Counted from the first letter of the stretch, positions 6,216-19,902 are shown. The stretch is 64,000 nucleotides of DNA from an uncultured Candidatus Saccharibacteria bacterium (GCA_964510435.1 CAZEBU010000001.1:234503-298502), one strand, 5' to 3'. Program-made: numbers and translations. Notes: generated by a model from the letters alone, not told the origin.

Positions 6216-8042
6216 CTATTCCTTTTCGAAATCGAAGAGGCGGCTTCTGATGGCTACATATGAGGGTGCTCTAAGATTGAAGACCGTTTTAAAGGTTTGT
6301 CCGTCTATTTTAACTGTACCGTTATCGGTCTCTAATTCTACCTGTGAGGTATAACCGCCGTTACTGACATCTACACTGATGCTTTTGACCTTTTTGTAGC
6401 TCTTACCGTATTTATTGGCTTTGTCACGCATTTTGTCTAGTGAGTAAGGGTCTCCGCCCCAGCAGCTGGTAGTCACCGGCGTGATACGATCCTTTTCGCT
6501 GCCGGAGCCTTTTGTCCAGACTACCCAGGCATTTACGATATCCGCCATTTCTTCTTCGGTGAGCCAAGGATGGGATCTACCGCAGTTGCTATTGTCATTG
6601 TAGCTTTTGGTATACCAGGCTTTTCTAAACCAAGGGCTGCCGCCTTCTTTTTCATAAGCATCCTCAGGCCAGCACGAAGAGCCACCGCATTTTGTGTCCC
6701 AACCAACGTTATTAATATAACCTCCGGTAGTGGAGGAATACCATCCATAACCGGAAGCATCGGTGCTGCCGTCGATGATCTTGTTTTTTGTATCTTTGAC
6801 TGCGTCCTTCCATCTACCCGGGGGATCATCGCTTTTACTCTTTAGGAATACCTGACAGTTTTGTGTTGTACAAATACAGAGACCTTTTTTGGCAAACCTG
6901 TAGGCATAAGATCTGCCAGCCACCGCCTGTGCTTTCAAGGCGTCTGAATCCCAGCTGCTAGGCATCTCGGCCAAACCATAGAGGTATTTCTGGTAGTCCA
7001 TCTCGCCGTAGCCTTCCACGCAGATCTTGCTAGGAAAATCATCCTTTTCTTTTACATCTTCCTCATAATAAAACTCAATAATGTCTTTATAACCTTTACC
7101 CTTTTCCGCCCTGCCTCTAGCTCCATACTGACTCATTCCTTTATAGTGCGTGTACGCTCCGTAACTAAAGGCGGCAAAAGCAGGGTCAAAAGGAGGATCC
7201 GGGGTCTTAGCTTCGGAGGGTTCATATTCTCCCACACTACCGCTTTCCGTACCGTATTTTTGGTTTAAAATAGCTTGTTGTTTAGAGGAGAGCTCGGCGA
7301 TTTCCTGCTCCAGGTCAAAGAGTTCCTCTTCGTAATCTTCCTCTTCCTCTTCCAAGTTACTGAACTCATTTTGTGCCGAAGCTTTTTTACTATCTACATC
7401 AGCTTTTAGAGATAACAAACTGTTTTGTGTACCTTCCAGCTCGGATATGATAGTTTCCGCTTCCAGCCTGTCTGTTTCAAAGGTGTTGATCTCTGAATTC
7501 AACAAGTAGATCCATTGTAAAGCGTCGTCAGTGAGGGATTTATTAAATATGTAAGAGAAAGATGAATACTGGAATCCGGTGAGATTAGTACCAAAGGGAT
7601 TGAAGGCAAAAAATATTTCCAGGTCGCTCTTAAATCTTTTTTTGGAATAATTTCTGATAACTTTGTTTCTAAAATCAATCTTTTCTGCCAGCTTACCGCG
7701 GCGATCACTGAGGTTTTCGTTGATGATGTTTAGCTCTTCGCTGATAAAGTTAATTTCGCTTTGCAGCTCGTCAATTTGTGCTTGTGTCACATTTAGTTCC
7801 GAAAGGTACTGGTTTATGGTGGCTTCAATGTTGTCCATTTTGCCTCTAATATCGCCTAGCTTATTTGAGGTGGACTCGTATTTTTCTTGTTTGTCTTCGA
7901 TCTTATTGGCGTAGCAGTCTGCTCTGTCATCTAGATCTTGGATCTCCGAGCATCCCCCAACAACCGGTTTGGGTACAAGAGCCAGCAGGAAAGCCAGAGA
8001 TACTATGAGGAGAGATGTTTTAAACAGGTTCCTTGCGGGCAT
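6216..8042 (-). CDS. Secreted coiled-coil protein with C-terminal SpoIID/LytB-like domain (peptidoglycan remodelling)
   Basis: N-terminal signal peptide and a long heptad-rich coiled-coil region. C-terminal AQAVAGRSYAYRFAKKGLCICTTQNCQVF matches the SpoIID family motif (AQAVAARTYA...CDTTxCQVY). Confidence 0.6.
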   Translation of the reverse strand: MPARNLFKTSLLIVSLAFLLALVPKPVVGGCSEIQDLDDRADCYANKIEDKQEKYESTSNKLGDIRGKMDNIEATINQYLSELNVTQAQIDELQSEINFISEELNIINENLSDRRGKLAEKIDFRNKVIRNYSKKRFKSDLEIFFAFNPFGTNLTGFQYSSFSYIFNKSLTDDALQWIYLLNSEINTFETDRLEAETIISELEGTQNSLLSLKADVDSKKASAQNEFSNLEEEEEDYEEELFDLEQEIAELSSKQQAILNQKYGTESGSVGEYEPSEAKTPDPPFDPAFAAFSYGAYTHYKGMSQYGARGRAEKGKGYKDIIEFYYEEDVKEKDDFPSKICVEGYGEMDYQKYLYGLAEMPSSWDSDALKAQAVAGRSYAYRFAKKGLCICTTQNCQVFLKSKSDDPPGRWKDAVKDTKNKIIDGSTDASGYGWYSSTTGGYINNVGWDTKCGGSSCWPEDAYEKEGGSPWFRKAWYTKSYNDNSNCGRSHPWLTEEEMADIVNAWVVWTKGSGSEKDRITPVTTSCWGGDPYSLDKMRDKANKYGKSYKKVKSISVDVSNGGYTSQVELETDNGTVKIDGQTFKTVFNLRAPSYVAIRSRLFDFEKE

Positions 8043-8155: not shown

Positions 8156-8518
8156 ATGGTTAAAATCTTGCAAACCCTAGGATACTTTGTCTTTTCGCTG
8201 TTTGCATCCGCAGGGGTTGTTTACGCTGATGCGGAATCGGTACAGGAATTTATTGACAGCGTCGCTTTGGATGAGGCTGAGATAGCTGTAGGTATATATA
8301 ACTTCTTATTTCCTATTGGTTTGGCCGTAGGTTTTTTTGCCATAATCATGGCAGGCTACTCATACCTAACTAGCCAAGGACAACCGGATAAGGTAAAAGA
8401 AGCTAGCGAAAAATTAACCAGCGCTATACTTGGTATTATTTTTATAGCTCTATCTCTGGTCATCTTGCGGATCATTGTAGTTTCGTTATTGGGAGGCTCA
8501 TTACCCTTAGCTACGTAG
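8156..8518 (+). CDS. Small secreted two-helix hairpin protein, VirB2/TrbC-pilin-like (paralog 1 of 4)
   Basis: Signal peptide (..AGVVYA|DAES). Two hydrophobic helices separated by a short polar loop (AGYSYLTSQGQPDK...). Conserved motifs are shared with the next three ORFs. Confidence 0.5.
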   Translation: MVKILQTLGYFVFSLFASAGVVYADAESVQEFIDSVALDEAEIAVGIYNFLFPIGLAVGFFAIIMAGYSYLTSQGQPDKVKEASEKLTSAILGIIFIALSLVILRIIVVSLLGGSLPLAT

Positions 8519-8642
8519 TCATTACCAACCCATAACTTGAGATCCTACCGTTGTGTTGTCACTGGTGATTCTAAAGGTTATAATTAATTCATTACTTGGT
8601 CCGATTTACTTTTATTTTAAAGGAGGTGTAAGTTAACGAACT

Positions 8643-8996
8643 ATGTTATTACAAAAAGTGTATGCAGCAGGAACAGCTGTGAGTACTACCATTACCGACC
8701 CATTAACAAACTACACCAGCTTAGGTCAAGTCTTTAACTTTTTGCTCAATCTGTTTATTGGTATCGGTTGGGCCTTGGTTTTTGTCATGTTAGCTTTGGG
8801 TTTTGTACAGTACGTAATGTCACGAGGAGAGAAAACCGCTGTCGAGTCTGCCCAGAAATGGTTGACTTATGCCGTTATCGGTGGCGTTGGGTTGTTCTTT
8901 GTCTCTTTTGTGAGGAGGATAGTACCACAATTGTTAGGAGGTACTGCCGGTCCAGGAACTGGCCTTACAACAGGTGGAGACCTAACACCGTTCTAA
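8643..8996 (+). CDS. Small two-helix hairpin protein, VirB2/TrbC-pilin-like (paralog 2 of 4)
   Basis: RBS AAAGGAGG upstream. Core hairpin LGFVQYVMSRGEKTAVESAQKWLTYAVIGGVGLFFVSFVRRIVPQLLGG aligns with the other paralogs. Gly-rich C-terminal tail. Confidence 0.5.
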   Translation: MLLQKVYAAGTAVSTTITDPLTNYTSLGQVFNFLLNLFIGIGWALVFVMLALGFVQYVMSRGEKTAVESAQKWLTYAVIGGVGLFFVSFVRRIVPQLLGGTAGPGTGLTTGGDLTPF

Positions 8997-9049
8997 CGAG
9001 TATTGTTATTATTGTTACTGCAGTAATTACGAGATCTCAAAAAGGAAAA

Positions 9050-9077
9050 GCTCCAATGTTAACATTGGGGCTTTTTT
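9050..9077 (+). terminator. Rho-independent terminator after pilin-like paralog 2
   Basis: 9-bp stem GCTCCAATG/CATTGGGGC (one G-U pair) with a TTAA loop, followed by TTTTTTG. Confidence 0.55.
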
Positions 9078-9091
9078 GTTAAAATTATTTT

Positions 9092-9430
9092 ATGTTTGAT
9101 ACTCTACAAAGTATTTTTGGTTCGGTAGGCGCAGGTAGCCCAGGTAACAGCAAATATATTAGTTTTGCAGCTATGGCGGGTGCCGTCTTGAACTTTATGA
9201 TGGCCGTTGCCTTTGCGATCAGTATTTTAGCTGTGGCATACTCCGCTATCATGTACATTGTGAGCGGTGGAAATCCTGATAATACCAAGAAAGCTTGGAA
9301 TGCGTTTATATATGGAGTAGTTGGCGCTGCAGTTTCAGTAGGATTGTTTGCCTTGACCCGCATTGTTTTAAGTGGGTTTGGGGTTGAAGGTGTGCGAACT
9401 GATATTAATCAAATTATCCCAGGCTTTTAG
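9092..9430 (+). CDS. Small two-helix hairpin protein, VirB2/TrbC-pilin-like (paralog 3 of 4)
   Basis: Core VAYSAIMYIVSGGNPDNTKKAWNAFIYGVVGAAVSVGLFALTRIVLSGFG aligns with paralogs 1, 2 and 4. Confidence 0.5.
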   Translation: MFDTLQSIFGSVGAGSPGNSKYISFAAMAGAVLNFMMAVAFAISILAVAYSAIMYIVSGGNPDNTKKAWNAFIYGVVGAAVSVGLFALTRIVLSGFGVEGVRTDINQIIPGF

Positions 9431-9436
9431 AACAGG

Positions 9437-9907
9437 ATGAACACATTAAAGAAAAGTCTAATAATAGTATTTTTAATAACCGCTTCTTTGTTTGTGCTTA
9501 GTGATACAAATAAAGTGTACGCGCAATTTGGCGACTGCGATTTAGCTGGGGATACACAATTAGGTGTAACTGTTCCTAAACCCTCACAATTATTGTGCCC
9601 CTTCTACAGAATTATAAATTTCTTTTTCATTATTGTGGGCATTGTTTTTGCAGTTATGCTAGGTGTGGGAGCGATCAAGTTAGCCACCTCTTTAGGTGAT
9701 CCAAAGGCATTTCAGGGGGCCAACAGGACCTGGTTATACGCTGTTATTGGCGCGTTTGTGGCTGTGGGAGCGTATGCTGTTTTGAGGATTGTAAATAACG
9801 CGTTTGGTTTAGGTTTGTCTTTGGGAACAGGCCCCAGCAGCATTTATGACAGCATACAGACACAATGGGAAAATTTAATACGTAACACCTTCTTAATTTT
9901 TGAGTAA
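9437..9907 (+). CDS. Small secreted two-helix hairpin protein, VirB2/TrbC-pilin-like (paralog 4 of 4), with extra N- and C-terminal extensions
   Basis: Signal peptide (..TNKVYA|QFG). Core VGAIKLATSLGDPKAFQGANRTWLYAVIGAFVAVGAYAVLRIVNNAFG aligns with paralogs 1–3. Confidence 0.5.
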   Translation: MNTLKKSLIIVFLITASLFVLSDTNKVYAQFGDCDLAGDTQLGVTVPKPSQLLCPFYRIINFFFIIVGIVFAVMLGVGAIKLATSLGDPKAFQGANRTWLYAVIGAFVAVGAYAVLRIVNNAFGLGLSLGTGPSSIYDSIQTQWENLIRNTFLIFE

Positions 9908-9913
9908 ACCATC

Positions 9914-10552
9914 TTAATATGCGTAGTGGGGGGGTATAAAATACTCATCCTCTAAAATATTCCCCCAAAGTTGCATAAATTCATCCGCACTCATGGGTGT
10001 AAAATATGACTCTTGGTAAACAACCTGTGTGGTATCGAAGACGTTAAACCAAACCCCCTCATCCAGGTAAATATGGGCTTTTTCGTAAAAACCGTTTTTA
10101 TCGTATTTAATTATGTCAGGCTCGTCCAACTCCAAACGCTCTTTATAGGAGGAGAAAGGCAAAGCTTCATCATAGGATATAGGAATTCTCACAAACGCAA
10201 CTTTACCGTCTTTATCGACACCAATCTGGTGTTCCCTGACACCTGTCTTCGCGTCTCTGTGTACATAGAGAACCAACCCTTTGAAAGATCTTGAGGTAAG
10301 GAGTTTGCCGAATTTATCTTTGATATTCTCGTAGCTTGTTTTTCCTGGAGTAATACCATTCCAGGTATTTACTCTGTTTTCGGGTTTTACGTTATAGACA
10401 TCTGGAGAACCCAATTCCGGTTTTTCTGATTTAGGAATGCGTATACGTCCAAGGAATAAAATTATAATTCCTGCAACTAACCCAAAAACAAATATGAGAA
10501 AAAGTTTGTTTTCGAAAATAGTTTTTATAATAACCTTTAATTTATTTAGCAT
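9914..10552 (-). CDS. Bitopic membrane protein (N-terminal TM anchor + ~180-aa extracytoplasmic domain); speculative VirB8-like position
   Basis: A single N-terminal TM helix, LFLIFVFGLVAGIIILFLG. Sits 6 nt downstream of the 1075-aa gene on the same strand, so the two are probably co-transcribed. Confidence 0.45.
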   Translation of the reverse strand: MLNKLKVIIKTIFENKLFLIFVFGLVAGIIILFLGRIRIPKSEKPELGSPDVYNVKPENRVNTWNGITPGKTSYENIKDKFGKLLTSRSFKGLVLYVHRDAKTGVREHQIGVDKDGKVAFVRIPISYDEALPFSSYKERLELDEPDIIKYDKNGFYEKAHIYLDEGVWFNVFDTTQVVYQESYFTPMSADEFMQLWGNILEDEYFIPPHYAY

Positions 10553-10558
10553 ATTATT

Positions 10559-13500
10559 TTATGGTCCAAACAAAAAACTACTTGTAGCAAAATTATAATG
10601 TCCTTCGAAACAGGTAGGACAATATGTACCGTAGCTGTGCCAAAATTCGCTGGGAGAGACATTGGTGCATTGACCGCTTAGCACATGGTATTGTCCCACA
10701 GTCTCAGCAAAATCTTCGCTATTATTGTTACTTGTACTGCATTGGTTACCGGTGGGTCCTACGTATGTAGGTAATGTATAGCCGCTGTCATTTGACTGAG
10801 CTGTACCTAGGGCTCCCATGCCGTAGCGCATAGCATAGACATGTCCTGTTTCGTGGGCGAATAACCAATTGAAAAGAAGCTGGTTAGCGGAGTTGTATGT
10901 CCAACAACGGCCATCACCAAACTCTATTCTATTTAAACCTCTAGCCCAACCGCACCCAGCACCTCGATTCCAAGCAATTTCTATAGGACCGGCAGCGCAG
11001 AGTCTATCTACATAGCGACCACGAGTACCTGCTAGGCCGCCAGCGGCAGATTGTATGATGGAAAGTGCTTGTGGACCCTCTCCGGAATCCCACCCCTCAA
11101 GAAATTCAAAACAACCAACTGTACTTATTACTTCGCATTCTTCAGGAGGGCAGACTATGGGAGGGCCTGCAGCAGGACCACCTCCAAAATCCTTTCCAGC
11201 AGCCATTCTTGTGGGATCAACCGGAGTAATGGCTGTGAGAATGAAGATGAAAACTACCATCACTGGTATAACAACTACTAGACCAAAACAACCCATGACA
11301 TATCCCGCCAGTTTGAAAACTGCTTGAGCACTTTTTTCTACATATTTTTCTATAGCATCGAATTTAGCCTCTTTAATGGCTTTAAGCGTTGCAGCTGCAA
11401 AATCCATTGCTTTTTTGATCACATATTGCACTACCTTCTCGATGAGGGGGATCAACACGGTACCTATTCCTGATGTTCCGGCGGCGACAGCCGCACCGAC
11501 AACTTTGGCTAAAACTTTTGATATTGCCTTAGTTGCCATTTTCGACAACCATTTTGAAGCCACATTTCTTGCGTAAGCCACGGGCGCCAGGAATTTAAAA
11601 TATTTAAAGATCTTGCTTTGTATAATGTTGGCTCTCTGAGAAAGTTTATCTAAGATTCCGGCTTTACTTTGTAGGATACTGATAAAGTCTGAGTTTATCT
11701 CAATTTTATCCAAGCCTTTGAACAAGGCTTTGAGTTTCTCAATATTTTCCGGACTGTTTATTAAATACCCATTTGCATCGAATTTCAAACCCAGTTGCTT
11801 GTTGTGCTTCATAAGCCATTTTCTGAGGCTCTTTGCTCTTTGCTTCACGTCCTCTAATTCCTTAAAACCGTCATAATAAGATACTTTGTAAGCGACGCCG
11901 GGTCCGGTTTTGCCGTTAAGTAATTGTATAAAGCTCTTACCAGTCAAATGCAGTGCGTCTGATTTATCCAATGTGGTTCTGTCATTAAGACCAGTTCCAA
12001 GCTGAATATTAAAATTACCTGTAAATTTAAATTTACCCACGCCTTCTATATTGTGGGTTTGCCTATTAGCAAAAAGCCTAGTGCCCATTATTCCGTTGAA
12101 GAATTTTGATGATTTTACAGCGTCGTCACCCGGCACGCCGTCTTCTACGGAGTATCTCGAGTCGTATAATAGTCCAAAATAATGTCTTCTTTTTAGTTTT
12201 TCTTTTAAAAAACGCGCAGGTGTAAAACCATTTAATCGTTCCCTGAAAAGGACCCAAAATTGATCAGCTGCTATGTGCAATAGGCCGTCATTTTCAAGTC
12301 TATCTATGAGATCGTAAAAATCCTCCCTTTTATAGGTTCTTAGAGCCTCCTCCATAACATTGGCTAAGTTCTTAGTACCAACTATTTTGTCGTTACTGAA
12401 TATTACTTTGGTCAATGGGCTATTTAAAAGATGGGTTTCGACAAACTTTCTGTTCATTCGATCGAGGCTTCCCTTGACTTGGCCTTCCCTAGCGTATTTC
12501 TTTTGTAATAAACCAATTTTTCCACTGAGATTTCTAGCTTGGGTCTCACCGGTAATTTTTTCGTCTTTTAGCTTATCTAGATCTTTGAGGAGATTTCTTA
12601 ACGGTTTTGTATCTTTAACAAACTCATCAAGAGTATTACCACCTAATTCTATAAACCAATTATCCATTTCCTCTAAAGCCACATTTATCTTTGTGATATT
12701 CTCAACAACCCTTCCCAAGCGCTTATTTGCATCATCTATTGTGGCCGCACCATAAGTGTAAGCACTCAACTCTTTTGTCAAACCTGCTAATCCATAACCA
12801 ATGCCCTCACCATAAAGTGTTTCACCTGCCTTCTTTTGCGCATCCGTCAGTACACGGTCACTGGCGAATTTATAGGTGTTTATATCGCTACTCGAGATGC
12901 CCTGCAAAGCATTAGCCATTCTAATTGCCCTGGCTCGGTGTAGATAGGATTTGACAATTTCTACCTCTTTAGGATCACTTATATCCCCGCTATCAATCAG
13001 CTGAGTTAGTTCTGCCGAACTAGCTAGCGCCGCGGCGTTAATGAGCTTTCTGTAAGCCTTGTTTCTTGTACCCGAGGCTCGGACGGCTTGCATGTAGCTT
13101 AGGAAGGCACCGCCCGATTTTGCAAAAAGATCGGTTTCTGTTTCCGTAAATTCCTTAGTTTCCTTACCACCTACCTGTTCCTGGTAAAGAAGCCCAACTG
13201 ACACTTTAGCTTTAGGAATATCTAAACCCTTGAGTTGGAATGGCCTAAATTTAGTAGTCGCGCTTTCATCAAGGTGCTCGCCATATACCTTGCTTACGAT
13301 ACCTGGTATTGGTTTAATTTCACCTCCGCTCAGGAGAGGTTTCCACATAGCCGATTGCTCCATATAGGAATCAAAGTCTTTCCAGTTAGCAAAATCCTTT
13401 ACAAATCTATCTACGGTGTCTTTGGCCATTTCACCTGGGTTTCTCAGCCACTTGACAGGATTTATGTCTAATTCAAGCTGTACACCGGCAACATCTTCTT

Positions 13501-13786
13501 CATCACCAAGTTCTAGCGCACGCATAGGGTCGTAAGACACGCCTTTTGGTTTTGTTTGGGCAATTAAAGTTCTTTCCACATCGTCAATAAAGAACTTTTT
13601 AGCTTGATTACCAATGGTTAATTTATCCAGCTCTTTTCTAACCGCAAACAAGTACTTTTCGATCAAAGCATCCGTATTAAATTCGACCATATCAGGGGGT
13701 CTACTATAAGGAGGTCTTTTTCTAGGAATAGGCTTGCCAGGATAGTATCCGCCAAGAAGTTCGTAAAAAGGGTTTGAGTCAGGCAT
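10559..13786 (-). CDS. Large membrane protein: ~730-aa N-terminal domain without signal peptide, two central hydrophobic helices, C-terminal Cys/Gly-rich domain with HExxH zincin-like motif
   Basis: AHETGHVYAM motif in the C-terminal domain. Strongly hydrophobic segment GLVVVIPVMVVFIFILTAITPV. No Walker A motif was found. Confidence 0.5.
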   Translation of the reverse strand: MPDSNPFYELLGGYYPGKPIPRKRPPYSRPPDMVEFNTDALIEKYLFAVRKELDKLTIGNQAKKFFIDDVERTLIAQTKPKGVSYDPMRALELGDEEDVAGVQLELDINPVKWLRNPGEMAKDTVDRFVKDFANWKDFDSYMEQSAMWKPLLSGGEIKPIPGIVSKVYGEHLDESATTKFRPFQLKGLDIPKAKVSVGLLYQEQVGGKETKEFTETETDLFAKSGGAFLSYMQAVRASGTRNKAYRKLINAAALASSAELTQLIDSGDISDPKEVEIVKSYLHRARAIRMANALQGISSSDINTYKFASDRVLTDAQKKAGETLYGEGIGYGLAGLTKELSAYTYGAATIDDANKRLGRVVENITKINVALEEMDNWFIELGGNTLDEFVKDTKPLRNLLKDLDKLKDEKITGETQARNLSGKIGLLQKKYAREGQVKGSLDRMNRKFVETHLLNSPLTKVIFSNDKIVGTKNLANVMEEALRTYKREDFYDLIDRLENDGLLHIAADQFWVLFRERLNGFTPARFLKEKLKRRHYFGLLYDSRYSVEDGVPGDDAVKSSKFFNGIMGTRLFANRQTHNIEGVGKFKFTGNFNIQLGTGLNDRTTLDKSDALHLTGKSFIQLLNGKTGPGVAYKVSYYDGFKELEDVKQRAKSLRKWLMKHNKQLGLKFDANGYLINSPENIEKLKALFKGLDKIEINSDFISILQSKAGILDKLSQRANIIQSKIFKYFKFLAPVAYARNVASKWLSKMATKAISKVLAKVVGAAVAAGTSGIGTVLIPLIEKVVQYVIKKAMDFAAATLKAIKEAKFDAIEKYVEKSAQAVFKLAGYVMGCFGLVVVIPVMVVFIFILTAITPVDPTRMAAGKDFGGGPAAGPPIVCPPEECEVISTVGCFEFLEGWDSGEGPQALSIIQSAAGGLAGTRGRYVDRLCAAGPIEIAWNRGAGCGWARGLNRIEFGDGRCWTYNSANQLLFNWLFAHETGHVYAMRYGMGALGTAQSNDSGYTLPTYVGPTGNQCSTSNNNSEDFAETVGQYHVLSGQCTNVSPSEFWHSYGTYCPTCFEGHYNFATSSFLFGP

Positions 13787-13813
13787 ACGTTTATTTTATA
13801 ATAGATTTATAGT

Positions 13814-15247
13814 ATGAGAAAGGAAACCCTGCTTGATAGAAAAATAGTTCTTAAATTAGCTACATTCTTATTTGTCGGCTTTTTGTTCCTTGGATTATCA
13901 CCAAAAGCGCATGCAGGGGTGTGCGATGAACAACCCCCAAAATTTAGATTTGATATCATGATTGCCTGCAAACTTAAGGAGATTAATCCCCTGGTCTCTA
14001 TTCAGAGAACAATCAACGACGCGGCAACTACCATACTCACTAATGTTTTAGCCTCCATAGTTTTTAATAGTAATCCTGATGATCTGGGGACGTGCGGCGT
14101 TGCTATGTTGGCGGATCGAATAGACACTCTTCCCGGAGTGAATATGACGGACATTACTGATCAAAATGGAGTTTTGTTTAGTGCTGCGGAAGTGCAGGAT
14201 GCTCGTGATGCAGCCCCGGCCATCGGCTGTGATTTTAACGACACCCTTTTCGGGTCAAGGGCTAACGGCAGTTTGATGGGAGTAACTAAATTTGCTTTTA
14301 ACACGGTAACAACAGAGCAGCCTCCGATTAATTTGGCTTATTATTTCAAGCACAATTTGCAGAAGGTACCCATTATCAGTGATACAGCTTATGCACAAAC
14401 AGTGAGCTATAACGCCTGGGGATTGGAATTTGCTATCCAGATTTGGGAAAAATCACGCAACATTGCCTACGCCATGATGTCGGTTATCATGCTTGTCATA
14501 GGCATCCTTATTATTACCAGGAAAAAAATAAACCCCCAGACTGTAGTTTCTGTACAAACGGCTCTACCCAGGATAGTGATCAGCCTTATTCTTATTACTT
14601 TTAGCTATCCTATCGGGGCCATCTTAATATCCATAGGTTACGCCTTGGTAGTCGTTGTTATCAGGTTGTTTTTTGGAACTATTATAGATGATGTATCCCA
14701 GTTGGCGGATATGGATGTGCTGGTAATGATGGTTACTATTATGGCAGCTACTATTGGACCTCAAGGAGTAATAGGAGTAGTGACGGCAATGCTAATGGCT
14801 GTTTTGACCATCATAGCTTTGCTAGTGGCTATTATTAAGATTATAATTATTAATCTAAAGGTTCTTATTGCTATAATTTTTGCACCTATTCAGTTTGCTA
14901 TCGCAGCCATCCCGGGGCAGGAGGACCTGGTGCAGGATTGGTTTAAGAAGATGCTCGCCAAAGTGTTAGCTATTCCTGCCATATTCTTTATGATTGCCCT
15001 AGCTTGGTATATGCTCATTGTGCCCTTTACCAATCCAGATTTCTTTACCAGCATACTCGTACAATCCACTGACCCGATAAGTATTGGATATACCCTGATC
15101 AGAGGAGCAAGGGCGGTTGGTTCCAGAATGATCACTATTATGTTGCTTCCCCTTATGACCATTATGACTATGTTTTTTGCTTTGAAAGCGGATAAAGTAG
15201 TGGAAGAGTTTATTATGGGCGGTAGAGGTAAACCTAAAAGAAGATAG
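13814..15247 (+). CDS. Polytopic membrane protein with signal peptide and N-terminal extracytoplasmic domain, VirB6/TrbL-like architecture
   Basis: Signal peptide followed by a ~200-aa soluble region. At least five long hydrophobic helices in the C-terminal half. Divergent from the 1075-aa gene with only a 27-nt gap. Confidence 0.45.
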   Translation: MRKETLLDRKIVLKLATFLFVGFLFLGLSPKAHAGVCDEQPPKFRFDIMIACKLKEINPLVSIQRTINDAATTILTNVLASIVFNSNPDDLGTCGVAMLADRIDTLPGVNMTDITDQNGVLFSAAEVQDARDAAPAIGCDFNDTLFGSRANGSLMGVTKFAFNTVTTEQPPINLAYYFKHNLQKVPIISDTAYAQTVSYNAWGLEFAIQIWEKSRNIAYAMMSVIMLVIGILIITRKKINPQTVVSVQTALPRIVISLILITFSYPIGAILISIGYALVVVVIRLFFGTIIDDVSQLADMDVLVMMVTIMAATIGPQGVIGVVTAMLMAVLTIIALLVAIIKIIIINLKVLIAIIFAPIQFAIAAIPGQEDLVQDWFKKMLAKVLAIPAIFFMIALAWYMLIVPFTNPDFFTSILVQSTDPISIGYTLIRGARAVGSRMITIMLLPLMTIMTMFFALKADKVVEEFIMGGRGKPKRR

Positions 15248-15259
15248 TTAGATAATTAA

Positions 15260-18200
15260 ATGATATGCGCCGTTATGAAATCCAGCAGATTTACCAAGAT
15301 ATTTACGATCCTCCTAGTTTTATTAGGAGTTTCCCTATTTAACAACGTATTTGCACAAGAAGAATGTGACGAAGACGGTTTTATTGTCAATAGCTATTGT
15401 CCTTGTCCCCCTGATCCTGGTATAGCTTCAGTTTGCGGATTTGTGAGTGACGCGAATATTACCCAGGATCTTCCCGATACGGGTATAGAAAGAGCAATCT
15501 GGTCTACCAGAAAACCTGTACCCGGTGTTACCGTGACCATTTATGAAAATAACCCTGATATACCAACAGGTAAGCCGTATGGGAAGCTAGACAGAAAATT
15601 TGGTGCCTGCTACACCACAGAAGAAGAAGGAAAATATCACTGTTTAATGCGGAGACTTAATCCCGGCAACATGGCCTATGTCATTTTTAGCTGTGACGGA
15701 AAAATAGCGGATATGAAGATTATACCCACTGTGAAAAGTTACATAGGACTAGATTCAGATATAGATTGTAGCGGCGAATATAGTTACAATGCCCTAGATG
15801 ATGAGCTAGACTTTGCTGAGAGAAGTAATTTTTTGGGCTGTTTATCAACATCTGATGAAGAGGAAAATGTTAACGCCGGTTTTGAGGAACCGGAGTACAT
15901 CTACAAAAGTGCTGATATTGGTGAGAAGGGTGGAGATATTAGATTCAACCCTTTCACTGGAGTTTTACCCATTGTTGGTGTGCACAACGGTGCCTTTTGG
16001 GAAAAGGATTGTTTGTTCGAATTCACAGGACCGTTAGATTTAAACAGAGAATACGCTCTATTCGGAGGTTTTTTTGGTTTAGCAAACTATGGAAGTGTGT
16101 CAGAAAAGTGTAATTTGGATCCGGACAGAGATGGTGATGGAGCTATAGACGGCGATGATGGAAATCCCCTCAATGATCCTGATGAACTCACAGTGCCGTT
16201 CAGATATGATATTCCAACATTGCAGTTAGAGCACGAGCAGCAGAGGATTTGGGAGACCAGAACTTCCATGCAACGGGAAATACAGGATCCCAGAGCATTT
16301 CAACAGTACAACCATCTCATGTTTGGTGAATGTGTAGGTAGGGCGTTTCTCAGGTATTTTGGCGATGATGATGAAGACCTGCCTATTTCCTGCAGTGAGC
16401 TGGCGGAGTGTAACGAAGCCTTAGGAGATCCTTTTAGGAATACACACACAGCATTGAGTTTAGGATCACGTCTTGAGTTACAAGTTACTTGGGAGGACAT
16501 CTTAGATGCAAATGAAAGGGATCCGGAGGACATAGTTTGCGAAGATGAAGAATTGGGAGAGATTATGATTTCTGAGGTGCAACCACCATTCCCTGATAAC
16601 CCGTGCGAACCGGGAAGCCCGGGGTGCCCATATAAGTTATCAAGAGATTACTATATGCCGCAGTTTTTTGTTGAGGTTGGTGGTGTAAAAAAACCTAAAA
16701 CAGCAGAAACAGCGAATGACGCATATGGAAGTATCCCTAGGAGTTTAGTATGGGAACCTATAAGTACAGAAGCGGAAACTCCCCATGAATCAGGGCACTA
16801 TGTGAATTATGAGGACAAATCTTCGCAGAGGACAAACTCAGGCAGGACAGCTATCAGATTAGCCTCGAAAAGTAATGCTGATCTCGGGGACGTTATGACT
16901 AACAGGTTCGTGAGTTACATAGACGCTGTAGATGAAACTTATGATTATAATTCGGAATCAACAATTTGGGATGCAGGTGGAGATGTTAAAAGCCTATGTA
17001 CCATTTCTAGTGTTAACGATTTGCTTATAATTCCCGACCTGGCTACAGAAACCACAACTTTGGTGAGCAACGAGTTTGTTGGAGATGAAACGGATCATAA
17101 AGAGGACGAAACGGCGGCCTCGTCAACCTATGGTACAAATTGGGGTATGGCAAGAGACGAAGCTATGTCAAACGATTATTTCTGGCGTGATGTGCTTGAT
17201 ACCTTACAAAGGTACTCAAGTGGTGGCGGTGTGCAGCTAGACTTGATGACCGCTTGGGCAATCGTAAGAAACATTGCCTCACGTGGAGCCGGTAATGTTT
17301 ATAAATCGTTCGCAGAAAGAATAGATAACTGGGCACAAGTAGGCTACCCTTCTTATATGAATACGGAATACTGCATTGCCGAAGATACCTTTGAAGCAGC
17401 CTTCCCAGCTTATGGTACAGGAGGTTATCCTGGCGGACACGCTTGCTATCCTTGGATAGATGTGCCCAGTGGGGAAAATTGTGACGCTTGGCCGGGACCT
17501 CCGGGTGAGTGGCCTCCTACTCCAGAGGTGAGTGCGCTAGGTTATAACGCTGGTTCATGGCCAGGTATAGAGGGAGAGCTAAGAACATGCAGAGCTTTAA
17601 ATTGTGAGATAAGAACAAAAACTCGAACTTGCGATGAGGAAATATGCAGGTGGGTTTGGAATTCACGCGCCGGCGTATTTGTTTGGGTGTGCAGTGGTTG
17701 CGGGGATAATAATGGAGATGGGAACGTGGACTCAAACATTGATGATTCTACGAGAGGCTGTAACGACGGTGAGCTTAGGGCCTGTTTAGTTGAGCAAAGA
17801 GATAACTGGGATGAACAGCCTCCAGATCCCCCTCCACTGGATCCCCCTGATTATGATGATGAAAATAGTAGTATACGCGCTTGTGATTTAGAAAAAGCCG
17901 GACCAATGCAAGAGCCGGGTGATATTTGGAAAGACCACTCTGCTAGGATAGTTCAGCAGCCTTTTTTCGGGCAATCTCAAGAAAATGTTGATACGGTGTC
18001 CTTGACCGCTAACTACACGGCACTTTCCCTAACCAGTAAGGTTGAAGAAAGAAGAGAAAGCCATAAGGTTAGTTTTGTAGATTATGCATCCACAAATGAT
18101 ATCAGCGGAGGGGGACCTGCACAGGCCATAGATCCTGATAGGCTTAGGCACAGGAACACCGCAGGCACAAATTCTCAAGGATTTGGTACCGGGGCGGCAG

Positions 18201-18892
18201 TAGATCTACTAAAAACCATTAGCCACCCCGAAAGGTTTGGTTCTCTGGTTGAGCCGTTGCCGGACTGGATTCCAAATTGTAATTTTTATGATCCTAATTC
18301 ATGGTGTTATGCTATTCAACCTCCTGGTCCCATCGATTTAGATAGTTTGGATGGAGGTGCATGTAATCCAAATACTACTCGGGGAGCATGTCCTTTGAAC
18401 GGTTATGTACCCGCTATTGCAGAGAGAATACTAGGTGCCGCCGGAGCTAATTCGGGGGTTGATGGCGCAGTTTTGCTGGCAGCCATATATGGAGAAGGTG
18501 GGTGGATTGGTCCTGGGGCAAGGCTTGATTGGATAGATGCCAACGTCAGAGCCTGGAGCGAACCCTGGTATGCGAGAATACCTGGATGTAACGACATGGT
18601 GCCCACAGCCCAGGGACCTTTTGGTATGATAACCCGTTGGTTTGAAGGTGCGGTAGCTAATGGAGGATACCACCCATCGAGAGTAAGTCCTACCAACGGA
18701 CAGGTTATAGTCAGTAAATGTAACTTTATAGACGCAGCTTATGCTGCGGCACAGATGCTTGGTGGAATAGGATGTAATGGTTTTAGTGCAGCTGATGTAA
18801 GACAGAGATTAGCGGTTTACAGAGGCGGTTCTCAAGCAAATCCGGCAGACGTACCCCAGTTTTTAGTAGACACCGCTATGAACTGCCGCTAA
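15260..18892 (+). CDS. Giant secreted Cys-rich protein with Asp-rich calcium-binding-like repeats (DxDxDGxxD) and a possible C-terminal lysozyme/lytic-transglycosylase-like domain
   Basis: Signal peptide (..NNVFA|QEE). Very many Cys residues. DPDRDGDGAIDGDDGNPLNDPDE resembles thrombospondin-type-3 Ca-binding repeats. The C-terminal region (AIYGEGGW...GPFGMITRWF) is weakly reminiscent of SLT-type motifs. Confidence 0.5.
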   Translation: MICAVMKSSRFTKIFTILLVLLGVSLFNNVFAQEECDEDGFIVNSYCPCPPDPGIASVCGFVSDANITQDLPDTGIERAIWSTRKPVPGVTVTIYENNPDIPTGKPYGKLDRKFGACYTTEEEGKYHCLMRRLNPGNMAYVIFSCDGKIADMKIIPTVKSYIGLDSDIDCSGEYSYNALDDELDFAERSNFLGCLSTSDEEENVNAGFEEPEYIYKSADIGEKGGDIRFNPFTGVLPIVGVHNGAFWEKDCLFEFTGPLDLNREYALFGGFFGLANYGSVSEKCNLDPDRDGDGAIDGDDGNPLNDPDELTVPFRYDIPTLQLEHEQQRIWETRTSMQREIQDPRAFQQYNHLMFGECVGRAFLRYFGDDDEDLPISCSELAECNEALGDPFRNTHTALSLGSRLELQVTWEDILDANERDPEDIVCEDEELGEIMISEVQPPFPDNPCEPGSPGCPYKLSRDYYMPQFFVEVGGVKKPKTAETANDAYGSIPRSLVWEPISTEAETPHESGHYVNYEDKSSQRTNSGRTAIRLASKSNADLGDVMTNRFVSYIDAVDETYDYNSESTIWDAGGDVKSLCTISSVNDLLIIPDLATETTTLVSNEFVGDETDHKEDETAASSTYGTNWGMARDEAMSNDYFWRDVLDTLQRYSSGGGVQLDLMTAWAIVRNIASRGAGNVYKSFAERIDNWAQVGYPSYMNTEYCIAEDTFEAAFPAYGTGGYPGGHACYPWIDVPSGENCDAWPGPPGEWPPTPEVSALGYNAGSWPGIEGELRTCRALNCEIRTKTRTCDEEICRWVWNSRAGVFVWVCSGCGDNNGDGNVDSNIDDSTRGCNDGELRACLVEQRDNWDEQPPDPPPLDPPDYDDENSSIRACDLEKAGPMQEPGDIWKDHSARIVQQPFFGQSQENVDTVSLTANYTALSLTSKVEERRESHKVSFVDYASTNDISGGGPAQAIDPDRLRHRNTAGTNSQGFGTGAAVDLLKTISHPERFGSLVEPLPDWIPNCNFYDPNSWCYAIQPPGPIDLDSLDGGACNPNTTRGACPLNGYVPAIAERILGAAGANSGVDGAVLLAAIYGEGGWIGPGARLDWIDANVRAWSEPWYARIPGCNDMVPTAQGPFGMITRWFEGAVANGGYHPSRVSPTNGQVIVSKCNFIDAAYAAAQMLGGIGCNGFSAADVRQRLAVYRGGSQANPADVPQFLVDTAMNCR

Positions 18893-18957: not shown

Positions 18958-19434
18958 GTGAGATATAATAACCCCATGCTGATACAGAAAAACCGCAAGG
19001 CTCTCTTTAACCACGAGATTCTCGAGAAATTTATGGCAGGAATTGAATTAAAGGGTTTTGAGGTCAAGGCAATAAAAGAAAATAAAGCCAGTTTTGAAGG
19101 TTCGTTTGTCAACATAGTGAAGGGCGAGGCCTTTGTACAAGGTATGCATATTGGCAAGTATTCGAAACAGAGCCAGGATTACTACGAACAAGAAGCACGC
19201 CGTCCTAGACGTTTGCTCTTAAATAAGCATGAGCTGAAAAAACTAAAAAAAGAAATTTCCGAAAAAGGTAAAACAGCGGTTCCATTGGCACTGTTATTAA
19301 AACGAGGCATGATCAAATTAGAGTTTGCGGTGGTTAAAGGTAGAAAAAAGCACCAGAAAAAACAATTACTGAAAAAGAAGCAGATAGAAATGGATCTAAA
19401 GAAAGAGATCAAACAGCAGTTTGAGTTGCCGTAA
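18958..19434 (+). CDS. smpB: SsrA-binding protein SmpB (true start possibly the second ATG at 18976)
   Basis: Sequence matches the SmpB family (NRKA...GIELKGFEVKAIK...LLLNKHELKKL). A basic C-terminal tail is present. Confidence 0.85.
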   Translation: MRYNNPMLIQKNRKALFNHEILEKFMAGIELKGFEVKAIKENKASFEGSFVNIVKGEAFVQGMHIGKYSKQSQDYYEQEARRPRRLLLNKHELKKLKKEISEKGKTAVPLALLLKRGMIKLEFAVVKGRKKHQKKQLLKKKQIEMDLKKEIKQQFELP

Positions 19435-19509
19435 TAGTATTTTAAGCATATTGAAAATTCGTACGAAGTGAGTTATAATACAGACCCATAGTGTTATGGG
19501 TGTAATTAC

Positions 19510-19902
19510 GGGGATGCGTAGGCATTGATTGGAAGAAGTAATTACGAGAGCAAGCCGAAGTGATAGATTTTCGTAAAAAACTATCAAAACATAAGTGCTG
19601 ATGAATACGCATATCAGCCAGCATACGCTTACGCTTAAGTGTATGTGTCAGAACCCTTTGGGTATATCCCAAATCGTTTTGAGGTCCTGTGCTCACTAGC
19701 CTGAGGGGAGTGCAAGGGCGTTATAAAATCAGGCACCGCAGCTTAAGCCTGACCAGTTTAGGTTGTTTGCGAAAGGAAGGTCTAGGGAAAGGTTAAGGGT
19801 TTGCGGTTGCCCGACTTTTACCGAATAAATTTCCGCTAAGCTTGTATTCTTTTGTATTTTATAGCTTTCAAGACGGGGGTTCGAATCCCCCCATCTCCAC
19901 CA
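19510..19902 (+). ncRNA. ssrA: tmRNA (ssrA), one-piece form
   Basis: 5' GGGGAUG pairs with the 3' acceptor strand CAUCUCC, with one G-U pair. The 3' end has the tRNA-like T-arm GGGGGTTCGAATCCCCC followed by A and CCA. It lies immediately downstream of smpB. An in-frame tag-like ORF ends at TAA 19636..19638 (…ADEYAYQPAYAYA*). The 5' boundary is approximate. Confidence 0.65.

Follow-up and report, generated by a model that had tools for sequence, protein, structure and literature searches.

A VirB6/TrbL-like polytopic protein in the pilus module of a probable WWE3-class Patescibacterial type IV secretion locus

Which protein takes the place of VirB6 in the type IV secretion systems (T4SSs) of Patescibacteria? 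These systems are monoderm (MPF-FATA-like) and chromosomal and carry arrays of VirB2-like pilins, and in a cultivated Saccharibacterium the T4SS genes with their VirB2-like pili are essential for epibiotic growth (PMC12102498; PMC12857230). With hidden Markov model (HMM) profiles, Quinonero-Coronel et al. 2025 found VirB6 "scarce or absent" in Microgenomatia and Gracilibacteria, "suggesting extreme sequence divergence" (PMC12102498). Here, we address this question at a locus within a stretch of 64,000 nucleotides (nt), hereafter the window, recorded under uncultured Candidatus Saccharibacteria bacterium (GCA_964510435.1, CAZEBU010000001.1:234503-298502). The locus encodes a polytopic protein of 477 amino acids (aa), a divergently transcribed 1075-aa protein with an HExxH motif, and a 212-aa bitopic protein. 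An earlier note on this DNA had read the first as VirB6/TrbL-like and had suggested a VirB8-like role for the last. The window is best explained as the pilus and membrane-platform module of a chromosomal, monoderm-type T4SS in a WWE3-class Patescibacterium. The VirB6/TrbL-like reading of the 477-aa protein is supported by its fold, which resembles TrwI, by a profile bridge to a TrbL_3-annotated relative, and by conserved synteny. We regard two conclusions, taken jointly, as likely: the 477-aa protein represents the VirB6/TrbL type of T4SS subunit, and a VirB8-like nature of the 212-aa protein can be dismissed.

The 477-aa polytopic protein and its T4SS context

The core of the locus comprises the following features:

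13814-15247, plus strand: VirB6/TrbL-like polytopic membrane protein, 477 aa (open reading frame (ORF), hydropathy, AlphaFold2 (AF2) model)
13787-13813, no strand: divergent intergenic region, 27 nt (sequence)
10559-13786, minus strand: T4SS-associated membrane protein, 1075 aa, with HETGH at residues 978-982 (10841-10855) (ORF)
9914-10552, minus strand: 212-aa bitopic protein (ORF, hydropathy, model)
8156-9907, plus strand: four divergent VirB2-like T4SS pilin genes, at 8156-8518, 8643-8996, 9092-9430, and 9437-9907 (Pfam PF18895)

All three ORFs are present where the earlier note had placed them, and the two ATG start codons of the divergent genes lie exactly 27 nt apart, as it had stated. 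The 6-nt spacing (AATAAT) on the other side of the large gene is likewise correct, while the description of the 212-aa gene as ending there is not: it begins 6 nt past the stop codon of the 1075-aa gene. The chosen start codons are backed by relatives, in which the N-termini (MRKE... and MPDSNP...) can be aligned from the first residue onward. The genes are real, as relatives of the 477-aa protein number 100 by word-indexed search and 296 by a single-motif scan of species-representative genomes, and the 212-aa protein has 101 cluster representatives.

Hydropathy and the AF2 model confirm the proposed outline of a signal-like N-terminus, an extracytoplasmic domain, at least five transmembrane (TM) helices, and a basic C-terminus. 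The signal-like segment spans residues 1-34 (13814-13915), with a hydrophobic stretch at residues 9-30 followed by AHA/G. It is succeeded by an extracytoplasmic, helical N-domain of ~170 residues (residues 35-203; 13916-14422), which contains four cysteines and is variable among relatives. The conserved TM core occupies residues 204-468 (14423-15217) and harbors, within residues 204-457, five to six hydrophobic helices of considerable length, together with the motifs W211-x3-RN, LPRIV...LITFSYPIG (252-268), and APIQF...IPG (357-368). The chain ends in the basic tail GGRGKPKRR. Hydropathy and the positive-inside rule point to an N-out, C-in topology.

The AF2 model (predicted local distance difference test score (pLDDT) 87.4, predicted template modeling score (pTM) 0.84) has a fold like that of solved VirB6: its best Foldseek match is TrwI, with a probability of 0.99. 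On the sequence level, a bridge leads to the TrbL families. A profile of distant members of the 477-aa family retrieves the protein P0211 (L089 4155-7001) at E 2.6e-10, and hhalign aligns the family alignment A1 with P0211 at 97% and E 1e-10, bringing the motifs W-x3-RN, LPRIV...SY, and AP..F...P..E..W into register. P0211 bears a precomputed match to Pfam PF19590 TrbL_3, and P0045 (L090), which phmmer relates to the 477-aa query at E 6e-29, bears a weak precomputed match to the same family. Since hmmscan with Pfam-A returned no family for P0211 or P0045 even at E<=1 and thus did not reproduce the TrbL_3 matches, this bridge is supportive rather than decisive; the TrbL_3 model may be missing from, or altered in, the Pfam-A copy scanned.

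The locus of P0211 deserves description in its own right. Two TrbL_3 proteins of ~950 aa are encoded in tandem, followed by PrgI, TraC-like, VirB4, and a CHAP-domain protein of more than 900 aa (L089 4155-17001), and six pilin genes lie upstream of the tandem genes in divergent orientation. It represents the same system with an "extended VirB6".

Contextual evidence comes from gene order. ORFs were called in the loci of 80 relatives and searched with iterated profiles; 42 of these loci have a full flank, defined as a complete 10 kb. Pilin arrays, with about five genes each, are found beside the VirB6-like gene in 72 of the 80 loci, and in all 42 full-flank loci pilins lie immediately upstream on the same strand as the VirB6-like gene. 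Within 10 kb, the full-flank loci additionally encode:

PrgI(VirB3)-like protein: 26 of 42 loci
TraC-like protein: 21 of 42 loci
VirB4: 17 of 42 loci
VirD4-like protein: 16 of 42 loci

The usual order in relatives is pilins, VirB6-like, PrgI, TraC-like, VirB4. In 21 of 21 VirB4-containing loci, the VirB6-like family provides the sole polytopic protein between the pilins and VirB4. BLASTP revealed no relation between the 477-aa protein and the PrgI-like protein of relatives. In a WWE3 subclade, the order is SpoIID on the minus strand, four pilins on the plus strand, the optional 212-aa gene and the 1075-aa gene on the minus strand, and the VirB6-like gene on the plus strand; downstream of the latter come the 1210-aa gene and SmpB, which is the arrangement of the window, or PrgI/TraC-like/VirB4. 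This shows that the pilin/VirB6 module is separable from the ATPase module.

Several observations weigh against the assignment to VirB6. The 477-aa protein matches no family in Pfam or NCBIfam at E<=0.1, and none of the curated VirB6/TrbL models (Pfam TrbL PF04610 and its relatives, NCBIfam VirB6) recognizes it. Likewise, 48 relatives have no TrbL family match at E<=0.01, and neither the protein nor the family profile finds a match among PDB sequences, including TrwI and DotA (profile, E<=10). The failure of hmmscan to recover TrbL_3 belongs to the same side, as do the weak Foldseek E-values (0.12), given that helical membrane bundles can match non-specifically. From these points, it could be argued that the 477-aa chain is some other polytopic protein without relation to VirB6, for instance a transporter or a general envelope protein, and that its resemblance to VirB6 is a non-specific helical-bundle match: significant sequence matches to TrbL/VirB6 models are missing, Foldseek E-values are ~0.1, and the match lists include designed helical repeats and rhodopsins. 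Set beside the TrwI-like fold, the profile bridge, and the conserved position between pilins and PrgI/TraC-like/VirB4 genes in relatives, we find this explanation scarcely credible. The 477-aa family is most likely a highly diverged VirB6/TrbL-type core subunit and a good candidate for the VirB6 missing in the ultrasmall bacteria of WWE3 and Microgenomatia.

A further point on the opposing side concerns completeness. While the window itself encodes four pilins that match Pfam T4SS_pilin PF18895 (E 2.7e-8 to 6.3e-5) as well as the pilin profile, and which lie on the plus strand just upstream, profile searches of the whole 64-kb window found no VirB4, VirD4, PrgI-like, or TraC-like gene. The 1075-aa and 1210-aa proteins were considered as hidden VirB4/VirD4 ATPases and rejected, as they match no P-loop family and the whole-window profile searches were negative. 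The module of pilins, VirB6-like, 1075-aa, and 1210-aa proteins might accordingly be a stand-alone apparatus for surface filaments or adhesion that no longer works with a VirB4-driven machine, all the more as several WWE3 loci, including that of the complete genome CP006914.1 (L029), are equally split and end at SmpB. Yet the assembly of a VirB2 pilus is known to require VirB4. Moreover, the same module is fused directly to PrgI/TraC-like/VirB4 in the close WWE3 relatives L004, L013, L014, L020, and L021, and Patescibacteria often have their T4SS genes scattered (PMC12102498). We therefore consider a stand-alone apparatus very improbable and read the module as probably part of a T4SS.

Where record titles are informative, the hosts of the 477-aa family are candidate division WWE3 and Gottesman-, Shapiro-, Woese-, and Roizmanbacteria (Microgenomatia). 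Many metagenome-assembled genomes with the pilin/VirB6-like cluster (L042, L050, L052, L054, L059-L064, and others) are titled "uncultured Gammaproteobacteria", "Pseudomonadales", or "Saccharibacteria"; these bins are probably mislabeled. The VirB6-like gene of L003, which shares a contig with L011, has a break at 9852-10001: its conserved ATGAGAAAGGAA start does not continue in the frame of the remaining ORF, so that the gene is called from a GTG 148 nt downstream, past the signal segment. Either an assembly error of 1 nt or a genuine frameshift probably accounts for this.

Within the TM core, one region resembles the neighboring pilins. A profile built from 356 neighboring pilins matches the TM1-loop-TM2 region of 12 of 80 VirB6-like proteins, while it matches neither other non-pilin ORFs of at least 250 aa nor reversed sequences. 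In hhalign, pilins and the VirB6-like family align with a probability of 27% (P = 6.7e-4) at window residues 222-275 (14477-14638, plus strand), and P0091, a short relative of the 477-aa protein, has a precomputed TrbC/VirB2 Pfam match. The hairpin at residues ~222-275 consists of a helix, a basic RKKINPQ loop, and a second helix. We treat this likeness as a weak lead, which may reflect a pilin-like hairpin within VirB6 or merely a similar composition of TM hairpins. If the former were true, a "pilin layer" would be built into the VirB6 oligomer and would serve as seed or template when the pilus polymerizes.

The 27-nt gap between the divergent genes

How are the two divergent genes expressed from a gap of 27 nt? 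The gap contains a candidate -10 element, TATAAT at 13797-13802 on the plus strand, which reads TATTAT at 13803-13798 on the minus strand. The element is pseudo-symmetric and shares the -11A/-7T base pairs between both directions; an alternative minus-strand hexamer is TAAAAT at 13798-13793. Transcription start sites are predicted at 13809 (plus) and 13791 (minus). Both are A, lie 18 bp apart, and would yield leaders of ~5 nt without a Shine-Dalgarno sequence. Among bidirectional promoters of bacteria, start sites 18 bp apart are the most frequent arrangement (PMC10268837).

Conservation lends weight to this element. In the relatives L006, L009, L010, and L011 (the last on the same contig as L003), the length of the gap is identical, and the core ATT(T/C)TATAATAG is invariant among these four and the window, even though protein identity to the window amounts to 39-59%. 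In more distant WWE3 loci, the gap measures 42-116 nt and provides the VirB6-like gene with a Shine-Dalgarno sequence, AAGGA, while TATTCTATAAT is kept 8-13 nt from the ATG of the 1075-aa gene. Short leaders are also common elsewhere in the window: 20 of its 54 genes have a -10 hexamer with at least 5/6 matches ending 4-13 nt before the start codon, as compared to 3 of 54 in a control window, and a Shine-Dalgarno-like motif is found in only 14 of 54 genes. Short or absent leaders thus look like a genome-wide habit.

The consensus scan itself is less favorable. It returns TTGAGT-17-TATAAT with 10/12 matches on the plus strand and TTCTCA-16-TAAAAT with 9/12 on the minus strand, and the number of promoter consensus sites in the region does not exceed that in shuffles, which weighs against a specific promoter here. 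Together with the longer gaps and the AAGGA sequence of more distant relatives, this would suit separate, ordinary promoters located inside the neighbor's coding region, or a TATAAT used in one direction, with the gap reflecting compaction alone. However, compaction alone leaves the exact 27-nt length and the invariant core at such low protein identity unaccounted for, as well as the fixed 8-13-nt distance of the motif from the 1075-aa start where the gap is longer; the genome-wide short leaders and the spacing of the two predicted A start sites also argue for a shared element. We rate separate promoters as rather unlikely, and we lean, by a small measure, toward one bidirectional promoter with a pseudo-symmetric -10 element shared by both genes. 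From the shared TATAAT/TATTAT element, two nearly leaderless mRNAs would be transcribed in opposite directions.

The claim of the earlier note that the promoters overlap is hence plausible and well founded, because gap and core are conserved, the geometry fits, and short leaders are common; both start sites are predicted, and the consensus matches do not exceed those in shuffles. Its corollary of co-regulation is less straightforward. The two orientations of a shared symmetric promoter can also compete with each other (PMC12825309), and the relation between the divergent genes could equally be of this kind.

The 1075-aa and 212-aa proteins

What do the two minus-strand genes contribute? The N-terminal ~760 residues of the 1075-aa protein are conserved across WWE3 orthologues, lack a signal peptide, and are presumed to be cytoplasmic. 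They are followed by hydrophobic segments at residues 762-782 and 821-859 and by an extracytoplasmic, Cys-rich, zincin-like domain (residues ~860-1075; 10562-11209). In 12 orthologues of the HExxH type, the HExxH motif, a downstream ED(F)AE (EDFAE in the window), and six cysteines are invariant. Against a zincin-type peptidase stands that the domain has only sub-threshold matches to Pfam zincin families (M48, SprT, M12, M78) and no sequence match in the PDB.

In other orthologues, the same C-terminal position is taken by other peptidase domains, namely Peptidase_M23 in L035 and L013 (E 1.4e-25 and 1.8e-8) and Peptidase_C39_2 in L022 (E 9.5e-11). This exchange suggests that the family is a modular, membrane-anchored hydrolase linked to the T4SS. 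M23/LytM and cysteine peptidases are domain classes of Gram-positive VirB1-like proteins (compare PMC12102498). PrgK of pCF10 and TraG of pIP501, multi-domain wall hydrolases from Gram-positive T4SSs, are likewise membrane-anchored and T4SS-linked, and orthologues of the 1075-aa protein share with them exchangeable extracytoplasmic M23/LytM and cysteine peptidase domains. As swappable peptidase modules on a conserved, anchored chassis recall PrgK/TraG, a role in wall remodeling or in attacking a target is proposed. Unlike PrgK/TraG, however, the 1075-aa protein has a large conserved N-terminal region of ~760 residues that lacks a signal peptide and shows no detectable homology, and in the window it carries an uncharacterized, Cys-rich HExxH...EDFAE domain rather than SLT, CHAP, or LytM. 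The ectodomain might act as a VirB1-like hydrolase of the wall or of a target; for the putative hydrolase role of the window protein, we see the balance as even.

Near the N-terminus of the 212-aa protein lies its one TM helix (residues ~11-40), and hydropathy and the model place the remainder outside the cytoplasm. In the model, calculated from an alignment of 69 sequences (pLDDT 91), the TM helix leads via a linker to a tandem of two alpha+4beta repeats, and a further helix closes the C-terminus. This tandem-repeat fold is of the DUF4309/YfeY/BLIP type, with BLIP-like, BamE, and OsmE proteins lower in the structure matches; the 60 best matches contain neither VirB8, TraM, PrgL, or TcpC nor an NTF2 fold. 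While a word-indexed search yields two relatives, full HMMER yields the 101 cluster representatives, all of ~180-230 aa. Pfam searches on 69 family members gave BamE (four), DUF4309 (two), and CAP_assoc_N (one) at E 1e-3 to 2e-5 and no VirB8 family; the window protein itself had no match. The most similar known proteins are thus DUF4309/YjgB (PDB 4YGT), YfeY (2QZB), the CAP-associated N-terminal domain, and BLIP/BamE-like repeats, from which the 212-aa protein differs by its TM anchor and by its genetic tie to an HExxH domain in a T4SS locus. We know of no established function for its closest structural relatives.

This tie is evident from the distribution of the gene. It occurs in 10 of the 80 related loci, always directly downstream of the gene of the 1075-aa family, and it is present in 14 of 16 HExxH-bearing loci as opposed to 0 of 12 HExxH-less loci (Fisher p = 6e-6, a value that ignores shared ancestry). 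On the opposing side, two HExxH-bearing loci (L010 and L011) do without it. A conserved core subunit of the T4SS was considered and ruled out by the distribution in 10 of 80 loci. The gene is probably co-transcribed with the 1075-aa gene, and because its presence tracks the HExxH domain and not the T4SS core, we tentatively propose, as a possibility somewhat short of even, that the 212-aa protein is a dedicated partner of this domain. Most likely, though with low confidence, it binds the HExxH domain as an inhibitor, immunity protein, chaperone, or adaptor.

Consequently, the bitopic architecture described in the earlier note stands, while the VirB8-like role does not: NTF2/VirB8 fold and sequence similarity are absent from the matches above, and the distribution is patchy. 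The protein could in principle be a functional equivalent of VirB8, a bitopic T4SS scaffold with a different fold. It is bitopic, its N-terminal TM helix precedes an extracytoplasmic domain of VirB8-like size, and VirB8 homologues are almost undetectable in Patescibacteria, so that a replacement is conceivable (PMC12102498). Given a gene that follows the HExxH domain, we judge such an equivalence most improbable and keep to the tentative partner role. A bolder, combined proposal would be that the TM1 hairpin of the VirB6-like protein is homologous to VirB2-like pilins and that, in addition, the HExxH domain and the BLIP-like 212-aa protein form a peptidase/inhibitor pair arming the machine against the host wall; we regard this combination as doubtful.

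Surrounding genes and relation to known systems

Further genes flank the module:

15260-18892, plus strand: 1210-aa secreted, Cys-rich protein, function unassigned (ORF, signal-like N-terminus)
6216-8042, minus strand: 608-aa protein with coiled coil and SpoIID/LytB domain (Pfam SpoIID, TIGR02669)
18958-19902, plus strand: SmpB and tmRNA (tag ADEYAYQPAYAYA), directly 3' of the module

The 1210-aa ORF opens 12 nt after the end of the 477-aa gene, and both genes probably belong to one operon. Orthologues are found in L003 (41% identity) and in 13 of 80 loci. Searches of Pfam, NCBIfam, and PDB sequences returned no match for this protein, and they were essentially empty for the 212-aa and 1075-aa proteins as well. 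The 1210-aa protein may serve as a surface adhesin, a tip protein, or an effector. The gene of the 608-aa protein (Pfam SpoIID E 2.6e-15; TIGR02669 E 1e-23) is divergent from the pilin array, and an SpoIID neighbor beside pilins is kept in L003, L004, and L006 and in 22 of 80 related loci. The protein is a candidate peptidoglycan-remodeling partner and could be a VirB1-like helper of the type reported as lacking from Patescibacterial pilin loci. At the other end of the array, the last pilin gene (plus strand) and the 212-aa gene (minus strand) converge, with 6 nt between their stop codons (9907-9914). SmpB is a neighbor in 14 of 80 loci and provides a synteny anchor for WWE3 genomes. The remainder of the window is housekeeping (LeuRS, L25, SmpB, tmRNA, tRNAs, DnaG, sigma-70), and the GC content is ~41%. 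The locus is small and chromosomal, not a plasmid.

How might the module work? The 477-aa protein would be exported N-out via its signal peptide and held in the membrane by about five TM helices, leaving the basic tail in the cytoplasm. By analogy to TrwI/VirB6 of R388 and DotA of Dot/Icm, its oligomer may form the base of a channel in the membrane. VirB2-like pilins from the four upstream genes would be pulled from the membrane and polymerized at this platform, energized by VirB4 and assisted by VirB3(PrgI)-like, TraC-like, and VirD4 proteins, which are presumably encoded elsewhere in the genome, outside the window.

Compared with TrwI of R388 (PDB 7O3V, 8RT9), VirB6 of A. tumefaciens, and Pfam TrbL/TrbL_3, the 477-aa protein lacks a direct match to TrbL/VirB6 HMMs and differs by its cleavable-looking signal peptide and its variable, Cys-containing N-domain. 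Moreover, its host is a monoderm without VirB5 and VirB7-10, and in the window its gene stands apart from the ATPase genes. DotA of the Legionella Dot/Icm type IVB system (PDB 9NGY, DotA-IcmX protochannel) is larger (857+ residues), has IcmX as its partner, and is part of a diderm machine; sequence similarity between DotA and the 477-aa protein was not detected. The closest counterpart is the Patescibacterial (Saccharimonadia) T4SS, which, like the present system, is chromosomal and monoderm-type with arrays of divergent VirB2-like pilins (Wang et al. 2023, cited in PMC12857230; PMC12102498). Both share PrgI/VirB3, TrsD/TraC-like, VirB4, and VirD4, lie among housekeeping genes, and have no relaxase nearby. 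In contrast to the VirB6 proteins covered by the survey of PMC12102498, the present WWE3/Microgenomatia family would be missed by its HMM profiles, and neither the modular 1075-aa peptidase protein nor its 212-aa partner is described there.

The working picture of known T4SSs is unchanged by these findings, which extend annotation into poorly covered lineages rather than define a new kind of system. As a good candidate, the 477-aa family would fill the VirB6 gap for WWE3 and Microgenomatia and offers a usable alignment with the motifs W-x3-RN, LPRIV...LITFSY, and APxxF...PG. In addition, two unannotated accessory families emerge, a membrane protein with swappable M23, C39, or HExxH domains and a BLIP-like partner specific to the HExxH version. 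Both are candidates for the missing wall-remodeling or host-attacking functions of these systems.

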